From NCBI GenBank assembly GCA_958296245.1, contig OY282458.1:926440-990439 (forward strand): DNA of 64,000 nucleotides, written 5' to 3'. The DNA is from an uncultured Dehalococcoidia bacterium (GTDB lineage: Bacteria > Chloroflexota > Dehalococcoidia > Lucifugimonadales > G958296245). A program made the position numbers and the translations under genes. The notes below the pieces were generated by a model that did no database searches, was not told where the DNA came from, and was given only the letters and a program-made list of their open reading frames with translations. Shown here piece after piece: positions 1,749 to 44,522 of this stretch; positions within the stretch are counted from its first letter, which is position 1; each line of letters starts with the position of its first letter.

Positions 1749-2663
1749 ATGACCGAATTCCGCGGCGTCTTCCCCGCGATAATCACACCGATGACTCAGG
1801 ACGGCCACGTGAACGAGGCCGCGTTCCGCGAGGTGCTCGAATTCAACATCAGGGGCGGCGTTCATGGATTCTGGGTGGCCGGCGGCACTGGCGAGGGCGT
1901 CCTGCTCACCGACGATGAGAACCGGCGCATATCCGAGATAGCCGTCGATCAGAACCGCGGCCGATCCAAGCTAATCATGCACGTCGGCGCCCCAACGACA
2001 GAGCGCGCCGTGGGAATGGCGGAGCACGCCGCCCGGGCGGGCGTAGACGCCATCTGCGCCGTGCCCCCCTTCTTCTACAGGCCTGGCGACGACGCCATCG
2101 TCGAGCACTACCGCGCGGTGGGGGCCGCTGCCGGGCTGCCCCTGTTCGTCTACAACCTGCCGCAGTCCACCGGCGTGGAGATCACCCCTGAGCTCATGCA
2201 CAAGCTGCAGGACCGCATACCGCAGCTCAAAGGACTGAAGCACTCGTCGTTGATCTTCGCCAACATACGTACCTTCGCCGACATGGGCCTGAGCTGCTTC
2301 ACCGGCAGTTCGGTTCTCATGCTGCCTGCGCTGACCATCGGTGCCAGCGGCATTGTGGACGGACCGCCTTGCGCGGCGCCTGAGCGGTGGGTCGAGATAT
2401 GGAACGCGTACAACGACGGCGACTTGGGCCGCGCCGAAAAGGCCCAGCGGGAAGCTCACGAGCTCTTCGAGGCGGCGACGGGACTCGGCTTTCACGTCTA
2501 CTTCGCCACCCTTCACGCCATCGTCAGTGAGAGACTCGGCATCGACTGCGGCAGCCCCCGGCCGCCGCTCCCAGCCCTAACCATCGCCCAAAAGGCGAAA
2601 GTTGCCGAGAAAGTCGCGGAATTGGGCCTGTCTGCCGTACCAGTCGGCGCCGACGGCTCCTAA
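1749..2663 (+). CDS. dihydrodipicolinate synthase / N-acetylneuraminate lyase family class I aldolase (substrate unknown)
   Basis: ORF 1668-2663; start moved to ATG 1749 (GGAGG 1738-1742). MTEFRGVFPAIITPM..., GFWVAGGTGEG, CAVPPFFY, VYNLPQSTG are family signatures. Confidence 0.85.
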   Translation: MTEFRGVFPAIITPMTQDGHVNEAAFREVLEFNIRGGVHGFWVAGGTGEGVLLTDDENRRISEIAVDQNRGRSKLIMHVGAPTTERAVGMAEHAARAGVDAICAVPPFFYRPGDDAIVEHYRAVGAAAGLPLFVYNLPQSTGVEITPELMHKLQDRIPQLKGLKHSSLIFANIRTFADMGLSCFTGSSVLMLPALTIGASGIVDGPPCAAPERWVEIWNAYNDGDLGRAEKAQREAHELFEAATGLGFHVYFATLHAIVSERLGIDCGSPRPPLPALTIAQKAKVAEKVAELGLSAVPVGADGS

Positions 2664-2753
2664 CCGCTCCCGGTGTACCTTAGGAATCCCGGGAGCGCCC
2701 GTTGACCCCGCATGGCGCGCCCCTATGAGGGCGCCCAGGATAAGGAGCGCGCA

Positions 2754-3614
2754 ATGGCTGACCAACTGTCCCTGAAACACCCCCTGTCGGCGCCCGTCGA
2801 GTCTGGCCTGGACAATCTGGAGCGCTTGGGCCTCAAGGCCGAGGCCTCTATGGGCGACGACATAGAGGCCATAGACGAGTTCGCCGGCGTGCTGATCAGC
2901 GCCCATGCTCCGGTGACCATCGGCAGCATGCGTCTCAACTACGGCGCGACCGACAAGGGCTTCCGCGACAGGTCCATTGCTCACGTCATCGACTACGTCG
3001 AAAAGGCGCGGCGCTACCCCAACGTCAGGCAGATCAACATGCACCCCGGCCCCAGGCAGTGGCTGAACGAGGAGCAGACCGAGGGGCGCCAAGGCGACTA
3101 TGATCTTATGATCGACGGTATCCGGCAGATCGCGGCTCACGCAGCCGGATTCGGCTTGGAGATCGTCCTTGAAAATAACAACGCATACTGGGCGGGTGTG
3201 CCGGACGCGACTGCGGCGGCGGCCGTCGACTGGTCCCAACGCAATATATCCTTCGGGTCGTCGCCCCAGGAGTGGATCCAGATATGCGAGGATACTGACC
3301 GGGACAACGTGGGGCTCTGCCTCGACTCCAGCCACACTTGCACCTATGCCCACACCTTCGCGGACCCGGTTGAGCGCGAGGACGTGGTGATGCGGTTCTT
3401 GGCCAAGCCGCACCTGATCCGCCACGTGCATTGGAGCGACAACCACCTCTACGACCTGAGGGGCCGGAGCGACGCCCACGCGGTCTTGGGCCAAGGGTCG
3501 CTGCCGATAGAGATGCACCGCGTCATCAAGGACCTCGACGCGACCCTACTTCTCGAGCATTTCTACACCACCGAGGAGCTGGAGGGCGAGTTGGAGTTCA
3601 TCGCGAACCTGTAG
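2754..3614 (+). CDS. sugar phosphate isomerase/epimerase-like (xylose-isomerase-like TIM barrel) protein
   Basis: ORF 2712-3614; start moved to ATG 2754 (AAGGAG 2742-2747). INMHPG, VLENN, LCLDSSH, HVHWSDN motifs typical of this TIM-barrel family. Confidence 0.75.
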   Translation: MADQLSLKHPLSAPVESGLDNLERLGLKAEASMGDDIEAIDEFAGVLISAHAPVTIGSMRLNYGATDKGFRDRSIAHVIDYVEKARRYPNVRQINMHPGPRQWLNEEQTEGRQGDYDLMIDGIRQIAAHAAGFGLEIVLENNNAYWAGVPDATAAAAVDWSQRNISFGSSPQEWIQICEDTDRDNVGLCLDSSHTCTYAHTFADPVEREDVVMRFLAKPHLIRHVHWSDNHLYDLRGRSDAHAVLGQGSLPIEMHRVIKDLDATLLLEHFYTTEELEGELEFIANL

Positions 3615-3649
3615 CGCATGACGATAGAGCGCAAGCAGGAACCAGCCGA

Positions 3650-4678
3650 ATGATCGGGGTATCCATCGGATCCGGGGGGACTGCCGCCGCAGCCGCTGCC
3701 CTGCGGGAGACCGCACGCGCCGCGGACGTCGCCGAGCTGCGGCTGGACATGATGGACGAGTACGACCTCGCAACACTGCTGAGCGGACGCCCGTGCCCCG
3801 TGGTGGTGACCAACCGCGCTGCACGCGAAGGCGGGCGTGCCGTTGGCGGCGAGCGCGAGCGGGCGGCGCCGCTCCTGCAGGCCATAGAGATGGGCGCCGA
3901 ATACGTTGACGTCGAGCACGACGCCGTTGACCTGATCCCGGACAGGAAGAACACCCGCCTGATCGTGTCGAGTCACGACTTCCAGGGGATGCCCCGCGAC
4001 CTGCCGGGCCTTCACCTCAGCCTCGCAGCCAGAGGCGCCGACGTGGTCAAGGTAGTGGGGACGGCCCGCCGCATTTCCGACAACGTCGGCGTGCTCGACC
4101 TGCTCTCGAAGACGGACGTGCCCACCATAGCCATAGCCATGGGCGGGGCCGGACTGGTAAGCAGGGTGCTGGCGCTCCGGTACGAGTCGTGCCTGCTCAC
4201 GTACTGCACCCTGGATACGGGAGAGGCGGTCGCTCCCGGGCAACTGGCCGTCGAAACGATGCGCCAAGTCTACTGTGCGGACCGCATTGGGACGGGGACG
4301 GCCGTCTTCGGCGTGCTGAGCGCCGAACCCGTAGCCTGCGAGCCGGTGGCGTCGCTGAACGCGGCGACGCGGGACGCAGGGGTCGATGGCGTGTGGGTGC
4401 CTATGCCGGCACTGTACGACGGCGAGTCGCCGGCGGACGTCGTCCGCGCCTTCCGTCGAATCGCCGTCGCGGGCTACGCCGTCGTGGGCGCTGCCCAAGC
4501 CGCCGTGATGCCGGCCCTGGACCGAGTGGAATCCTCAGGCCCTGCAGGCCGGACCGACGCCATACGCCTGGATGGCGAAGCACTGGTGGGGGCGTGGACC
4601 GGCGGCCTTCAGGCCTCCTTCACGCTGCTCACCGGCCGCCAAGCCCCGCCTCGGCTCGTAACCGTTCAGTCTCCATGA
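3650..4678 (+). CDS. aroD: type I 3-dehydroquinate dehydratase fused to a degenerate shikimate-dehydrogenase N-terminal-like domain
   Basis: ORF 3431-4678 has an implausible Arg/Pro-rich N-terminus; likely start ATG 3650 (MIGVSIG). ELRLDMM, IVSSHDFQGMP and GADVVKVVG (catalytic His and Lys contexts) match type I dehydroquinase. The last ~110 aa (TAVFGVLSAEPVA...GYAVVG) resemble only the substrate-binding N-domain of AroE, with no Rossmann GxGxxG part. Confidence 0.65.
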   Translation: MIGVSIGSGGTAAAAAALRETARAADVAELRLDMMDEYDLATLLSGRPCPVVVTNRAAREGGRAVGGERERAAPLLQAIEMGAEYVDVEHDAVDLIPDRKNTRLIVSSHDFQGMPRDLPGLHLSLAARGADVVKVVGTARRISDNVGVLDLLSKTDVPTIAIAMGGAGLVSRVLALRYESCLLTYCTLDTGEAVAPGQLAVETMRQVYCADRIGTGTAVFGVLSAEPVACEPVASLNAATRDAGVDGVWVPMPALYDGESPADVVRAFRRIAVAGYAVVGAAQAAVMPALDRVESSGPAGRTDAIRLDGEALVGAWTGGLQASFTLLTGRQAPPRLVTVQSP

Positions 4679-4735
4679 GTTGACAGGAAGGGAAGGGGTA
4701 ACGATCTCTGGCCGCTTTGCAGGCACCCCCTGTCC

Positions 4736-4866
4736 GTCATTTCTGAGGAGCGCAGCGACGGAGAATCCTAAAGTCCTTGCGCACCGCACCAGGCCGTCTG
4801 GGAATGAACCATCCCACTGACAGGCCTCAGATTCCTCACTCCGCTGTGCGCTGCGTTCGGAATGAC
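4736..4866. repeat. inverted pair of a short interspersed repeat (GTCATTYC...GAGGAATCC family)
   Basis: GTCATTTCTGAGGAGCGCAGCGACGGAGAATCC (4736-4768) and inverted GATTCCTCACTCCGCTGTGCGCTGCGTTCGGAATGAC (4830-4866). Related copies at 1637-1667 (GTGATTTCTGAGGAGTGCAGCGACGAAGAAT) and 31885-31921 (GTCATTCCGAACGCAGAAGCCATCGGAGTGAGGAATC). Confidence 0.7.
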
Positions 4867-4980
4867 AATTTGGGTGGCTGGCGCTGTGTTCGGGATGACG
4901 GTTTGGGGTGGCTGGCGCCGCGTTCGGGATGACGGTTTGGGGTGGCTGGCGCTGCGTTCGGGATGACAGTTTTGGAGAGG
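4850..4980 (+). repeat. 33-34-nt tandem repeat, about 3.9 copies
   Basis: Units at 4850-4882, 4883-4916, 4917-4950, 4951-4980 (partial): GCYGYGTTCGGGATGACGGTTTGGGGTGGCTGGC. Each unit contains GTTCGGRATGAC, the reverse complement of the GTCATYCCGAAC half of the interspersed repeat. Confidence 0.9.
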
Positions 4981-5092
4981 CCCTCACGATTCGACTCGGC
5001 GAGACTGGACAATTGGGGAGATCCTCACGATTTATCTCACAGAGACTGAACAGCTACGCTTGACAATGCGGATGGGCGGGTGGTACCGTTGA

Positions 5093-5191
5093 ATGGTCAT
5101 GGAAGTCATGGGTGCGGCCCGTTATTGGCGCTTTTATTTTACTCCCGGCCTCGTGGCCGCCGGTTACGTCCAGGTGTGTGCAAACAGGTAA
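5093..5191 (+). CDS. putative attenuator leader peptide rich in aromatic residues
   Basis: ATG 5093 (alternative ATGs 5099, 5108) to TAA 5189-5191: MVMEVMGAARYWRFYFTPGLVAAGYVQVCANR. The codon run TAT TGG CGC TTT TAT TTT (5123-5140) carries Tyr, Trp and Phe, and uses AT-ending codons in a GC-rich genome. It lies between a TTGACA box (5060-5065) and a terminator immediately upstream of DAHP synthase. Confidence 0.5.
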   Translation: MVMEVMGAARYWRFYFTPGLVAAGYVQVCANR

Positions 5192-5218
5192 GTTAGAGAC
5201 GAGTACAGGCAAGACCAG

Positions 5219-5251
5219 GACCCCTACCGGCGCCGGAAGGGGTCTTTTTTT
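5219..5251 (+). terminator. intrinsic terminator (attenuator) upstream of DAHP synthase
   Basis: GACCCCT (5219-5225) pairs with AGGGGTC (5238-5244), with inner CCG/CGG pairs. It is followed by seven T (5245-5251); the T-run ends 14 nt before the aroG GTG start. Confidence 0.75.
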
Positions 5252-5265
5252 GTGGAGGTTAAAAC

Positions 5266-6339
5266 GTGTCTACCGCAACGGAAAGAAAGCAAGCCATTCG
5301 AGATGTCAACGTGAGTGTTACAGAGCCGCTGATGCCGCCGTCCGCGCTGCTCGCGGAACTGCCCCTCGCAGGGGAGGCGGAGGAGGCCGTGCTGGAGGGC
5401 AGGCGGAGCATTCGGCGCGTGCTGGACGGCGAGGACCGGCGCTTCATCGTGATTGCCGGCCCGTGCTCGATTCACGACTACGACGCCGCTCTGGAGTATG
5501 CAGAAAGGCTGGTCCGCTTGGCACAGCCGCTGAGCGACCGGATACTCACGGTCATGCGCGTCTACTTCGAGAAGCCGCGCACGACGGTGGGATGGAAGGG
5601 CCTTGTTTACGACCCGCACCTGAACGACAGCTTCGACATCGTCGCCGGCCTGCGGCAGGGCCGGTCGCTGCTCTTGGAGGTCGCCAAGATGGGCATCCAT
5701 GCCGCGACCGAGTTCTTGGACCCCATCGTGCCCCAGTACTTCGCCGATCTCGTGTCGTGGGCTGCGATCGGGGCCAGGACAGCCGAGAGCCAGACCCACC
5801 GCCAGATGGCCAGCGGGTTGAGCATGCCCGTGGGCTTCAAGAACGGCACCGGAGGCAGCGTGCAGCTCGCCGTTGACGCCGTCATCTCTGCGCGCGCCTC
5901 CCACGGTTTCCTTGGCATCGACCTGGACGGCCACGCGTCCGTGATCCAGACTAGGGGTAACCCGTACGGCCACGTGGTGCTCCGGGGCGGCAGCCGCGGC
6001 CCTAACTACGACGCCGAGTCCGTGTCCGGCGCACAGGGCACGCTCTCCAAGGCCGGACTGACTCCGAATCTCCTCGTCGATTGCAGCCACGGCAACTGCG
6101 ACAAGGACCACACCAAGATGCGCGTCGCCTTCCAGGACGTCGTCGAGCAGCGGACCGCCGGAAACGCAGGCATCATCGGCTGCATGTTGGAGAGCAACCT
6201 CAACCCCGGCAATCAGAAGCTCAACGGCGGGCGTGAAGGCCTCGCGCACGGCGTTTCGATCACCGACCCGTGCATTGGCTGGCAGGAGACGGAGGAGCTG
6301 TTCGGCTGGGCCTACGACCGCCTCGGGGCCACGGCCTAG
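5266..6339 (+). CDS. aroG: 3-deoxy-7-phosphoheptulonate (DAHP) synthase, class I
   Basis: GTG 5266 with GGAGG 5254-5258. IVIAGPCSIHD, VMRVYFEKPRTTVGWKGL, DPHLNDSF, WAAIGARTAESQTHRQMASGLSMPVGFKNGTGG align along the whole length with E. coli AroG/F/H. The isozyme/feedback type is not determinable. Confidence 0.95.
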   Translation: MSTATERKQAIRDVNVSVTEPLMPPSALLAELPLAGEAEEAVLEGRRSIRRVLDGEDRRFIVIAGPCSIHDYDAALEYAERLVRLAQPLSDRILTVMRVYFEKPRTTVGWKGLVYDPHLNDSFDIVAGLRQGRSLLLEVAKMGIHAATEFLDPIVPQYFADLVSWAAIGARTAESQTHRQMASGLSMPVGFKNGTGGSVQLAVDAVISARASHGFLGIDLDGHASVIQTRGNPYGHVVLRGGSRGPNYDAESVSGAQGTLSKAGLTPNLLVDCSHGNCDKDHTKMRVAFQDVVEQRTAGNAGIIGCMLESNLNPGNQKLNGGREGLAHGVSITDPCIGWQETEELFGWAYDRLGATA

Positions 6340-6387
6340 CAGGGTCTCTTTGGCGCCGTGCAGGCCCGCGCGGCGCGGAGGCGCAGC

Positions 6388-7236
6388 GTGTACACACCCG
6401 TCAGGGTTGCCGCGATTTCGATCAAGCCCACACCGTGGGCCAAGGACGCGAACGCCGACAAGATGGAGGCGTTCTTCAGGGAGGCCGCCGACGGCGAGCC
6501 GGACTTGGTATTGACCACGGAGGGCGTCCTCGAGGGCTACGTCGTCATGGACGCGGTCATGGACCCTGAGAAGGGCGGGGCCATGCTCGAAGTCGCAGAG
6601 CCCATCGACGGGCCGTATATCGCGCGCTTTCGCAAGCTCGCCAAGAGTCTGGGGACGAGCCTCGCGTTCGGATTCGCCGAGCGGATAGACCGGGATGTGT
6701 ACAACACGGCTGTCTTCATTGGCCCGGACGGCGAGATATGCGGCAAGTACCACAAGGTACAGCTTGCAGAGGGCGCCCACGAGTCGTGGTACTTCAACAG
6801 GGTTGGCAAGTCGCTCCGGGCGTTCGACACGCCCCTTGGCCGCGCAGGCTTCATGATCTGCAACGATAGATGGAACCCGCTCATCGCCCGGACCCTGGTG
6901 CTGGACGGGGCGCGGCTTCTGCTCATCCCGTCCTACGGCGACAAGTCGAAGCGCCAGAACGAGGCGGTGGTGGCGCGTTCGCGCGAGAACGGCGTGCCGG
7001 TCGTCGAGGCGAACGTGGGCGTGAACCTGATCGTCAGCAAGGGCGAGCAGGTCGCGTACGCGTGGGGCAATGACCGCATCACGACGGCGTACGTGGAGAT
7101 GCCCGCGTTCCCCTCCACGTCCTTGGCGCGCTCGTCGGAGGCCGAGTACCTCGCCCGGCAGGGCCCGGAGATGAGACGCCGGTACGACGAAACGGCCCGC
7201 CGCCTCGCGGAAGACCCCACGCGGCGGCCCGCGTAA
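6388..7236 (+). CDS. carbon-nitrogen hydrolase (nitrilase superfamily) protein
   Basis: ORF 6358-7236; probable start GTG 6388 (GGAGG 6 nt upstream). VRVAAISIKP..., LVLTTEG (Glu), CGKYHKVQL (Lys), GFMICNDRWNP (Cys) form the E-K-C triad pattern. Confidence 0.8.
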   Translation: MYTPVRVAAISIKPTPWAKDANADKMEAFFREAADGEPDLVLTTEGVLEGYVVMDAVMDPEKGGAMLEVAEPIDGPYIARFRKLAKSLGTSLAFGFAERIDRDVYNTAVFIGPDGEICGKYHKVQLAEGAHESWYFNRVGKSLRAFDTPLGRAGFMICNDRWNPLIARTLVLDGARLLLIPSYGDKSKRQNEAVVARSRENGVPVVEANVGVNLIVSKGEQVAYAWGNDRITTAYVEMPAFPSTSLARSSEAEYLARQGPEMRRRYDETARRLAEDPTRRPA

Positions 7237-44021: not shown

Positions 44022-44522
44022 CTAGGCGTCTGTTCTGCCGCTGCGCCAGAGATGGTTGCCGGTCGTGAGGGCGACGCACGTGAAGAGTGCGTCTGTGATT
44101 GGAAAGTAGATCAAGTGAGAGGTTACGGCGTCTCCGGTCTCGCTATCGGGATTCAGGGTCCAGAACCATTCCCAGAAGAACAGCATCGCCAGCACGATGG
44201 CCCCGTAGTAGGCGGCGTTGACCCCCACGTATTCCGTGATACTGGGCTGGCCGTCCCCCTTTTTCAGGTGGATCTTCCGGATGCAGCTCACGACCAACGC
44301 AATCAACGCCGAGGCGGCCATGAACCAGTTTATTATCTTCCAAACCGGGTAGTCCGGCGACCCATCGTGATATACGGGCGTGAGTATGAGGTTGGCGAAC
44401 GTAGCCGCCGCCGTCGCTATCAGAAAGACCGCCAGAATCCGCTTCGCTATGTCCATGATGTGGTGATGCCTCCCTTCGGCTCCTGTGCTTGTTGCGGCTG
44501 ATCTTCGGGTGGGTTCTGCCAT
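44022..44522 (-). CDS. hypothetical integral membrane protein
   Basis: Four hydrophobic segments (ILAVFLIATAAATFANLIL, INWFMAASALIALVV, AAYYGAIVLAMLFFWEWFW, IYFPITDALFTCVAL); the real start may be ATG 44456. Confidence 0.55.
   Translation of the reverse strand: MAEPTRRSAATSTGAEGRHHHIMDIAKRILAVFLIATAAATFANLILTPVYHDGSPDYPVWKIINWFMAASALIALVVSCIRKIHLKKGDGQPSITEYVGVNAAYYGAIVLAMLFFWEWFWTLNPDSETGDAVTSHLIYFPITDALFTCVALTTGNHLWRSGRTDA

Follow-up and report, generated by a model that had tools for sequence, protein, structure and literature searches.

A putative ribosome-mediated transcription attenuator with a mixed aromatic leader peptide upstream of the DAHP synthase gene aroG in SAR202/Dehalococcoidia Chloroflexota

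The 64-kb stretch of DNA analyzed here (the window; G+C content 63.7%) carries an aroG gene (5266-6339, GTG start) that encodes a class-I DAHP synthase of 357 amino acids; all features discussed below lie on the same (+) strand unless stated otherwise. The name given to this gene in a first-pass annotation made from the sequence alone is borne out by a match of the encoded protein to the Pfam family DAHP_synth_1 (E = 7e-81). A Shine-Dalgarno sequence, GGAGG (5254-5258), precedes the GTG codon and is present at the same place in most aligned relatives. Homologues of 355-357 residues cover 99-100% of the 357-residue reading; the database gene call, P0001, has 335 residues, lacks 22 residues and covers only 94% of the query. 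In our reading, P0001 starts too late. A gene for a CN-hydrolase begins 19 nt downstream of aroG, and any attenuator control of aroG may extend to it. The gene on the upstream side ends at 4678, more than 500 nt away. The module described here consists of a promoter-like sequence, a small ORF containing a run of aromatic codons, and a hairpin followed by seven T residues, the last of which lies 14 nt before the GTG codon. The ORF, the aromatic codons, the hairpin with its T-run, and the Shine-Dalgarno sequence and start codon of aroG were all listed in the first-pass annotation and are present where it placed them.

The small ORF was originally delimited at 5093-5191, where it encodes MVMEVMGAARYWRFYFTPGLVAAGYVQVCANR, and ends in a TAA codon (5189-5191). 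For reasons given below, we favor a putative leader peptide ORF of 30 codons at 5099-5191, the translation of which is MEVMGAARYWRFYFTPGLVAAGYVQVCANR. Five of the six codons at 5123-5140, TAT TGG CGC TTT TAT TTT, specify aromatic residues (Tyr Trp Arg Phe Tyr Phe), and a single one of them is for tryptophan. All four of the Tyr and Phe codons are the minor synonyms: in the long ORFs of the window, a quarter (25%) of the codons for Tyr are TAT, and 13% of those for Phe are TTT. When all six frames of the 64-kb window are considered, at least five aromatic residues per six codons are found in two places only. The second of these (near 44180, - strand) was rejected as a leader because it falls within a 166-residue membrane-protein ORF.

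Comparative data were obtained from genome and metagenome collections. The closest named DAHP synthase homologues among the matches listed belong to the "SAR202 cluster" and to Dehalococcoidia MAGs; near-identical DNA is present in a few runs of one sample, and related words are found in metagenomes from sponges, coral reefs and biofilms. Scanning the genome collection with a 33-nt pattern identified six true Dehalococcoidia/SAR202 genomes, and a scan of the same collection with the degenerate pattern CCGGNYRYGTCCNNGTGYGTG gave chance matches only, in high-GC genomes. Protein-based locus searches of both collections also returned relatives of 50-63% identity among the matches listed, which are too distant for covariation analysis and were used instead as a survey set of DAHP synthase loci. 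The whole module, from the -35 box to the start of aroG, is present in 13 other distinct SAR202/Dehalococcoidia sequences, the AroG proteins of which are 69-92% identical to that of the window, and these 13 upstream regions were aligned with that of the window to give a set of 14 sequences. The genes upstream of the module in these relatives differ, and include those for an acetyltransferase, an NHL-repeat protein and a transposase, or trpA with chorismate mutase; in some relatives the upstream neighbor, a PLD-like gene or one for a beta-lactamase-fold protein, lies on the opposite strand.

Within the aligned set the ORF has 28-30 codons, its frame is kept and its stop codon is at the same position in all 14 sequences. 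Insertions and deletions inside the ORF are multiples of three (3 nt), as opposed to 1-2 nt past the stop codon. Residues 2-8 are unconstrained. The aromatic block reads YWRFYF, YWRYYF, YWRYHF, YWYTYF, LYYYF, YYYYY or YVYYYFYF, and its aromatic class is therefore maintained across the 14 sequences despite exchanges among Tyr, Phe and Trp and synonymous codon changes. Because the start spacing is fixed (see below), the indels are of 3 nt, the N-terminus is variable and the aromatic class is retained, the small ORF appears to behave as a translated leader rather than as a protein. The proposal that this leader senses all three aromatic amino acids can hold only for the part of the clade that has a Trp codon; Trp is absent from the leaders of three relatives (L086, L299 and L301), to which that proposal does not extend.

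These comparisons also bear on whether the ORF is a chance one that happens to lie beside the terminator of the upstream gene. Spurious ORFs are abundant in high-GC genomes, and consensus scans missed both the promoter and the terminator of this region. That upstream gene, however, is more than 500 nt away, the module is retained in relatives in which the upstream gene is different or divergent, the only other comparably aromatic place in the window is genic, and the ORF is conserved over the full range of AroG identities. The comparative data effectively refute this explanation.

Conservation in the alignment starts exactly at the hexamer TTGACA (5060-5065), of which TTGAC is invariant in 14 of 14 leaders. 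An 18-nt spacer separates it from TACCGT (5084-5089), which together with a TG at 5081-5082 makes up a candidate extended -10 element, TG-n-TACCGT (5081-5089); the four specified bases of TAnnGT do not vary among the 14 sequences. The first-pass annotation had noted the TTGACA and considered its -10 partner weak, a view that is difficult to maintain given the TG dinucleotide and the invariance of both boxes. A consensus scan of this region for promoters and terminators flagged neither element; we attribute this to the TACCGT box and to an internal mismatch in the terminator stem, which would fall outside the rules of the scan, and give the result no weight against either feature. The start codon of the leader, which is ATG in the alignment except for one GTG, lies 9 nt past the -10 box in 12 sequences and 10 nt past it in two. 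The intervening nucleotides are variable and contain no Shine-Dalgarno sequence, and position 7 past the box is a purine in most of the 14 sequences, as read by eye. Taken from the alignment, the transcription start would be at about G5096, giving a 5' untranslated region of about 3 nt (5096-5098) without a Shine-Dalgarno sequence and a leader mRNA that we infer to be nearly leaderless. The constant spacing of 9-10 nt between the -10 box and the conserved start codon makes ATG 5099 the likely start of the leader, two codons downstream of the start at 5093 that had been assigned to this ORF. We rejected the ATG at 5093, which relatives either lack or have out of register, and which lies 4-6 nt past the -10 box, upstream of the likely transcription start.

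No conserved promoter is seen in the 14-sequence alignment between the leader stop codon or the terminator and aroG, and positions 5192-5214 are variable. As judged from this arrangement, aroG would depend on read-through, there being no apparent room for a separate promoter. The ORF could alternatively encode a stand-alone micro-protein that has its own terminator, in which case aroG would rely on constitutive, leaky read-through or on an unrecognized promoter, and amino acids would not be sensed. In favor of this, the ORF is conserved, is followed by a strong terminator, and has a C-terminal half, AAG(Y/C)V.VR.N, with peptide-like conservation. Against this explanation, which we regard as very improbable, residues 2-8 are free of constraint, and the conserved C-terminal half coincides with an RNA helix. 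Moreover, the terminator ends only 14 nt from aroG, the module always accompanies aroG whatever its other neighbors are, the variability of 5192-5214 leaves no conserved internal promoter, and the enrichment of aromatic runs before DAHP synthase genes (see below) would be left without an explanation.

The intrinsic terminator (5217-5251) comprises a stem-loop at 5217-5246 with a predicted free energy of -19.8 kcal/mol and a run of seven T residues at 5245-5251. Of the cells of this stem in the alignment of 14 sequences, 99.4% are paired, and one pair, which is A-U in seven sequences and U-A in the other seven, is compensatory. A second, mutually incompatible helix can be formed by region 2 (5158-5181), which is the 5' strand of a putative antiterminator and lies inside the leader ORF, with region 3 (5209-5232), which is the 3' strand and at 5217-5232 overlaps the terminator left arm; the leader stop codon is located in the antiterminator loop. 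When folding was confined to the RNA between the 3' edge of a ribosome stalled on the final aromatic codon and the 3' limit of the terminator left arm, so that region 4 was absent, the antiterminator was the minimum-energy fold in 14 of 14 sequences, as a long, imperfect helix with energies of -19.5 to -32.6 kcal/mol. Its core, CCGGU:ACCGG plus GUCC:GGAC, is also predicted de novo by RNAalifold, and 79% of its cells in the alignment are paired compared with 21-46% when the partner strand is slid. Two pairings had been folded by hand in the first-pass annotation, 5146-5150 with 5155-5159 and 5158-5164 with 5226-5232, and RNAfold returns both, although the antiterminator proves to be far longer than the 7 bp then envisaged.

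Double-sided changes in the antiterminator affect three pairs in five cells, the CCGG/GUCC core being almost invariant. One of them, C5158-G5232 to U-A, speaks for the antiterminator helix specifically because 5232 sits in the terminator loop, and another replaces U5164-A5226 by G-C. With a core that does not vary and a helix derived from the same 14 sequences, we regard the covariation support for the antiterminator as real but thin. The comparison of upstream regions in relatives that had been called for thus yields a conserved aromatic run, a compensatory change in the terminator and three doubly changed pairs in the antiterminator. The anatomy of the element, its conservation, its pairing potential and the order in which its folds are favored are what the present data show. 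The fold of the whole region is no more stable than that of shuffled sequence (z = +1.1), a score that is uninformative for a two-state switch.

Modeling of the growing transcript places the antiterminator as the minimum-energy fold for 3' ends between 5222 and 5240, with the terminator taking over only from 5246. In full-length RNA the terminator fold is the global minimum regardless of ribosome position, and because this is so whatever the ribosome does, the switch must be kinetic. On this modeling, the choice of fold must hinge on region 2 being free at the time when region 3 emerges. We represented the ribosome by masks, which were assumed to cover RNA up to 5152 for a stall at Phe-14 and 5174-5203 for a ribosome terminating at the stop codon. 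The former leaves region 2 free and the latter covers the lower part of the antiterminator helix, a geometry that fits mutually exclusive antiterminator and terminator structures formed with a stalled ribosome and with one that reads on, respectively. This folding, which had been suggested as a check, thus agrees with the attenuator reading in that a stalled ribosome leaves region 2 available and the antiterminator is favored before region 4 appears. With a ribosome at the stop codon, the thermodynamic model still permits two sets of pairs, the GUCC:GGAC helix and the upper 7 bp; that the ribosome would exclude both of these is a steric argument.

The 5' side of the switch differs from the trp paradigm. 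A small GC hairpin predicted by RNAfold, CGGCC-UCGU-GGCCG (5146-5159), joins region 1 to the 5' edge of region 2, and its CCGGC/GCCGG strands are conserved with zero covariation. This hairpin and the antiterminator coexist in the minimum-energy folds, at a cost to the antiterminator of only 1-2 bp. We considered it as a trp-type 1:2 anti-antiterminator and rejected that role: because it coexists with the antiterminator, we do not regard it as a trp-style protector, and in this detail the pheL/trpL-type mechanism first proposed would not carry over. It may possibly serve as a pause hairpin. Since the antiterminator can form alongside this hairpin, the predicted default of an untranslated leader is read-through rather than super-attenuation, unlike the situation in trp.

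Given this evidence, it is likely, in our view, that the element is a ribosome-mediated transcription attenuator controlling aroG, and the attenuator reading of the first-pass annotation is largely supported, in that a leader ORF, an aromatic run, a terminator and an alternative pairing are conserved, and in part covary, in differing neighborhoods. In the model that we infer for the transcription start, ribosome stalling, its timing and the response to amino acids, transcription would initiate from the conserved TTGACA / TG-n-TACCGT promoter about 3 nt before ATG 5099, and the leader would be translated off an almost leaderless mRNA. Scarcity of charged tRNA-Tyr, tRNA-Phe or tRNA-Trp would stall the ribosome at codons 9-14 (5123-5140), where it would cover RNA to about 5152, and region 2 would then pair with region 3 once the latter had left the polymerase. 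The resulting antiterminator would occupy the left arm of the terminator, allowing transcription to proceed into aroG. When aromatic aminoacyl-tRNAs are plentiful, the ribosome would instead pass over region 2 to the stop codon and block the antiterminator, and the hairpin at 5217-5246 with its T7 run would terminate transcription 14 nt before the start of aroG.

The same terminator and antiterminator might also be operated by an RNA switch that does not depend on translation, such as a riboswitch, a T-box-like tRNA sensor or a TRAP-like protein-binding attenuator, with the ORF being incidental. Two observations would suit such a device. Nucleotide-level conservation is seen in the 3' half of the ORF, which forms the antiterminator helix, and the antiterminator is the default fold without a ribosome, so that some factor must disfavor it. 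Searches with the Rfam 15 covariance models (including Trp_leader, Phe_leader, T-box and the riboswitches), however, gave no family match for 4000-6500 of the window at E values up to 10, and none at gathering thresholds in the leaders of 16 related loci. The fixed spacing from start codon to -10 box, the frame-preserving indels and the conserved position of the stop codon would have no obvious place in a switch of this kind, and neither would an aromatic block that is kept by amino-acid class while its codons change. In addition, unrelated leaders in other phyla have only an aromatic run and a terminator in common with this one. A translation-independent switch is very unlikely in our view, if slightly less so than a stand-alone micro-protein. 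The Rfam search also returned a match to the fluoride model within aroG on the opposite strand, which we ascribe to chance.

Transcripts assembled from relatives of about 90% identity are available as contigs, which resolve neither strand nor ends and provide no leader-to-gene ratios. In six sponge runs of one metatranscriptome study (P6), the contig that carries the leader and aroG of such a relative starts between 5111 and 5215 in the numbering used here and never upstream, so that the promoter is not reached; these contigs run from inside the leader through the terminator into aroG. A 3.9-kb contig, X13, from another study extends 3.4 kb upstream. The contigs show that read-through transcripts exist in close relatives, and lend weak support to the dependence of aroG on read-through.

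Regulation of this kind has a precedent. In Corynebacterium glutamicum, the aroF operon, the first gene of which encodes a DAHP synthase, is subject to attenuation by aroR, a leader peptide that contains Phe-Tyr-Phe (Neshat et al. 2014, J Biotechnol 190:55, as described in PMC11802643 and PMC4046766). According to the account in PMC11802643, ribosome stalling at the aromatic codons raises read-through, and limitation for Phe is effective but limitation for Tyr is not. Judged from the Phe-Tyr-Phe content and location of aroR, the two systems are alike in placing a mixed aromatic leader peptide before a DAHP synthase gene. They differ in that aroR-aroF belongs to an actinomycetote and the present module to SAR202 Chloroflexota, and in that the run found here (YWRFYF) is longer and includes Trp. 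C. glutamicum also provides, as cited in PMC4046766, an example of a leader peptide made without a ribosome-binding site, that of ilvBNC (Morbach 2000). For Actinobacteria, a comparative analysis has reported an absence of RNA elements for Phe/Tyr (PMC1262725), and in Escherichia coli the three DAHP synthase genes are under the control of the TyrR and TrpR repressors and not of attenuation (PMC11802643). Within the open-access literature searched, attenuation at DAHP synthase is documented only in C. glutamicum; with aroR-aroF as a precedent, the novelty implied by the first-pass annotation is lower than it might have seemed.

The E. coli leaders trpL, pheL (pheA) and pheM (pheST) follow the same logic: a leader ORF contains codons for the end product, and an intrinsic terminator cannot coexist with an antiterminator whose 5' strand becomes available when the ribosome stalls and is hidden when the ribosome continues, as is proposed for the window. 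Those leaders, however, respond to a single amino acid, have an ORF led by a Shine-Dalgarno sequence, and in untranslated RNA prevent the antiterminator from forming by means of a 1:2 hairpin. The window, in contrast, encodes three aromatic amino acids on what would be a nearly leaderless mRNA, has its stop codon in the antiterminator loop, and possesses a 5' hairpin that does not exclude the antiterminator.

Similar modules recur at other DAHP synthase loci. Among the matches listed from the genome and metagenome collections, 153 loci for class-I DAHP synthase were surveyed, and in 12 of them the 300 nt upstream of the gene contain, on the sense strand, a small ORF in which five or more of six codons are aromatic; the corresponding count is 0 for the reverse complement and 2 in 765 for shuffled sequences. 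A hairpin and T-run separate the small ORF from the gene in 11 of the 12 loci. The loci with aromatic leaders are from other Chloroflexota (L001-L004) and Desulfobacterota (L040, L052 and L073), the rest (L218, L221, in which four of six residues are aromatic, L227, L236 and L241) including unassigned metagenome contigs. These leaders resemble that of the window in their order of aromatic small ORF, hairpin with T-run and class-I DAHP synthase gene, and several of them have a motif, ...Y-(F/Y)-T-G-L..., after the aromatic run. Outside this motif, however, their nucleotides are mostly unalignable with the window; they are mostly rich in Tyr and Phe, with Trp not being present in all, and three (L052, L221 and L241) have two successive terminators each. 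A segment near the leader stop codon is complementary to the left arm of the terminator with a mean z of -1.5 relative to mononucleotide shuffles over 16 loci that are not all independent. We found no description in the open-access literature of leaders of this type in Chloroflexota or Desulfobacterota.

It is conceivable, and we suggest it tentatively, that the window is one representative of a broad and uncatalogued class of Tyr/Phe/Trp attenuators at class-I DAHP synthase genes in several phyla, with members in SAR202 and other Dehalococcoidia, in Desulfobacterota and in metagenome lineages that are unassigned. Those of the SAR202 branch would use a nearly leaderless mRNA and only two RNA states, with the translating ribosome itself acting as the anti-antiterminator. 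The class would combine information on the charging of as many as three tRNA species at the point where the shikimate pathway begins. The module would lend itself well to a new leader family in Rfam. It could also be used as a regulatory signal in the annotation of MAGs, where it corrects gene starts, as for the aroG call that covers 94% of the ORF, and it offers candidate signals for promoters and start sites in a phylum for which transcription data are scarce.

Aromatic amino-acid synthesis begins with DAHP synthase, an enzyme that model bacteria regulate by means of repressors and feedback inhibition. What is described here is a known type of switch in a new lineage; no concept is overturned, and the added interest is modest and comes from the module being seemingly widespread and uncatalogued. 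The presence of a mixed Tyr/Trp/Phe module in uncultivated SAR202 Chloroflexota and of similar modules in Desulfobacterota nonetheless suggests that putative leader-peptide attenuation of the common aromatic pathway may be commoner than textbook examples imply.

The database protein P0001 (335 aa), which corresponds to the window aroG gene (5266-6339, +), covers only 94% of the query and therefore lacks 22 residues, the part of the window affected being 5266-5331. Homologues of the aroG product that are 355-357 residues long have 99-100% query coverage, and a GGAGG motif is present at 5254-5258, ahead of the start at 5266. On the basis of coverage and sequence, the gene call for P0001 most likely begins 22 codons too late.

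Upstream of the aroG leader, the type I 3-dehydroquinase gene (3653-4678, +) is a second shikimate-pathway gene adjoining aroG in the window. Its product has a Pfam dehydroquinase domain at residues 15-207 followed by a C-terminal extension of about 130 residues for which there is no Pfam match, and the position of this gene next to aroG is not kept in relatives. The intergenic region between the dehydroquinase gene and the promoter of the leader (5060-5089) contains a tandem repeat at 4843-4972, with a 34-bp unit (consensus GCTGGCGCTGCGTTCGGGATGACAGTTTGGGGTG) present in 3.8 copies with 89% matches. Depth in the RNA contigs of relatives is high as far as ~4867, in this repeat region, and ends there.

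Many leader peptides that cannot otherwise be aligned share the motif (Y/F)-T-(G/T/C)-(G)-L-(P/S) directly after the aromatic run. These include the window leader and those of nine surveyed DAHP synthase loci, namely L001-L004 from other Chloroflexota, L040, L052 and L073 from Desulfobacterota, and L221 and L241. In the RNA the motif is encoded as UAC/UUU ACC GGN CUN, a stretch that makes up the 5' strand of the small hairpin (5146-5159 in the window). The motif could have been inherited together with the gene, or it could have arisen convergently under constraints on the RNA. Leaders of the Desulfobacterota type are followed by two hairpin and T-run terminators in succession, at ~355-480 in L052 and in the equivalent regions of L241 and L221. 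The right arm of the first terminator (CCCACGGC) and the left arm of the second (GCCGTGGG) are complementary. This arrangement is a hint that leaders of this type may work as a more complex, multi-state switch.

Downstream of aroG, a carbon-nitrogen hydrolase gene (6358-7236) begins on the same strand 19 nt past the aroG stop. This gene may be co-transcribed with aroG in the window genome, and may thus be under the same attenuator; it is absent from that position in the fetched relatives with gene tables. The SAR202/Dehalococcoidia relatives L299 and L301 (AroG identity 69%) have the same leader as the window, with weak terminator T-runs (TCTCTTCAT, TCTTTTCAT), and in L299 the minus strand carries a gene for the bacterial large SRP RNA (1802-2068), ~230 nt upstream of the leader promoter. 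Behind the leader, these two relatives have a longer row of same-strand genes (2501-6062), which comprises aroG, the gene for an Rce1-like protease, trpA, and the genes for chorismate mutase and tyrosyl-tRNA synthetase, so that several genes of the aromatic pathway may be under attenuator control in these genomes.
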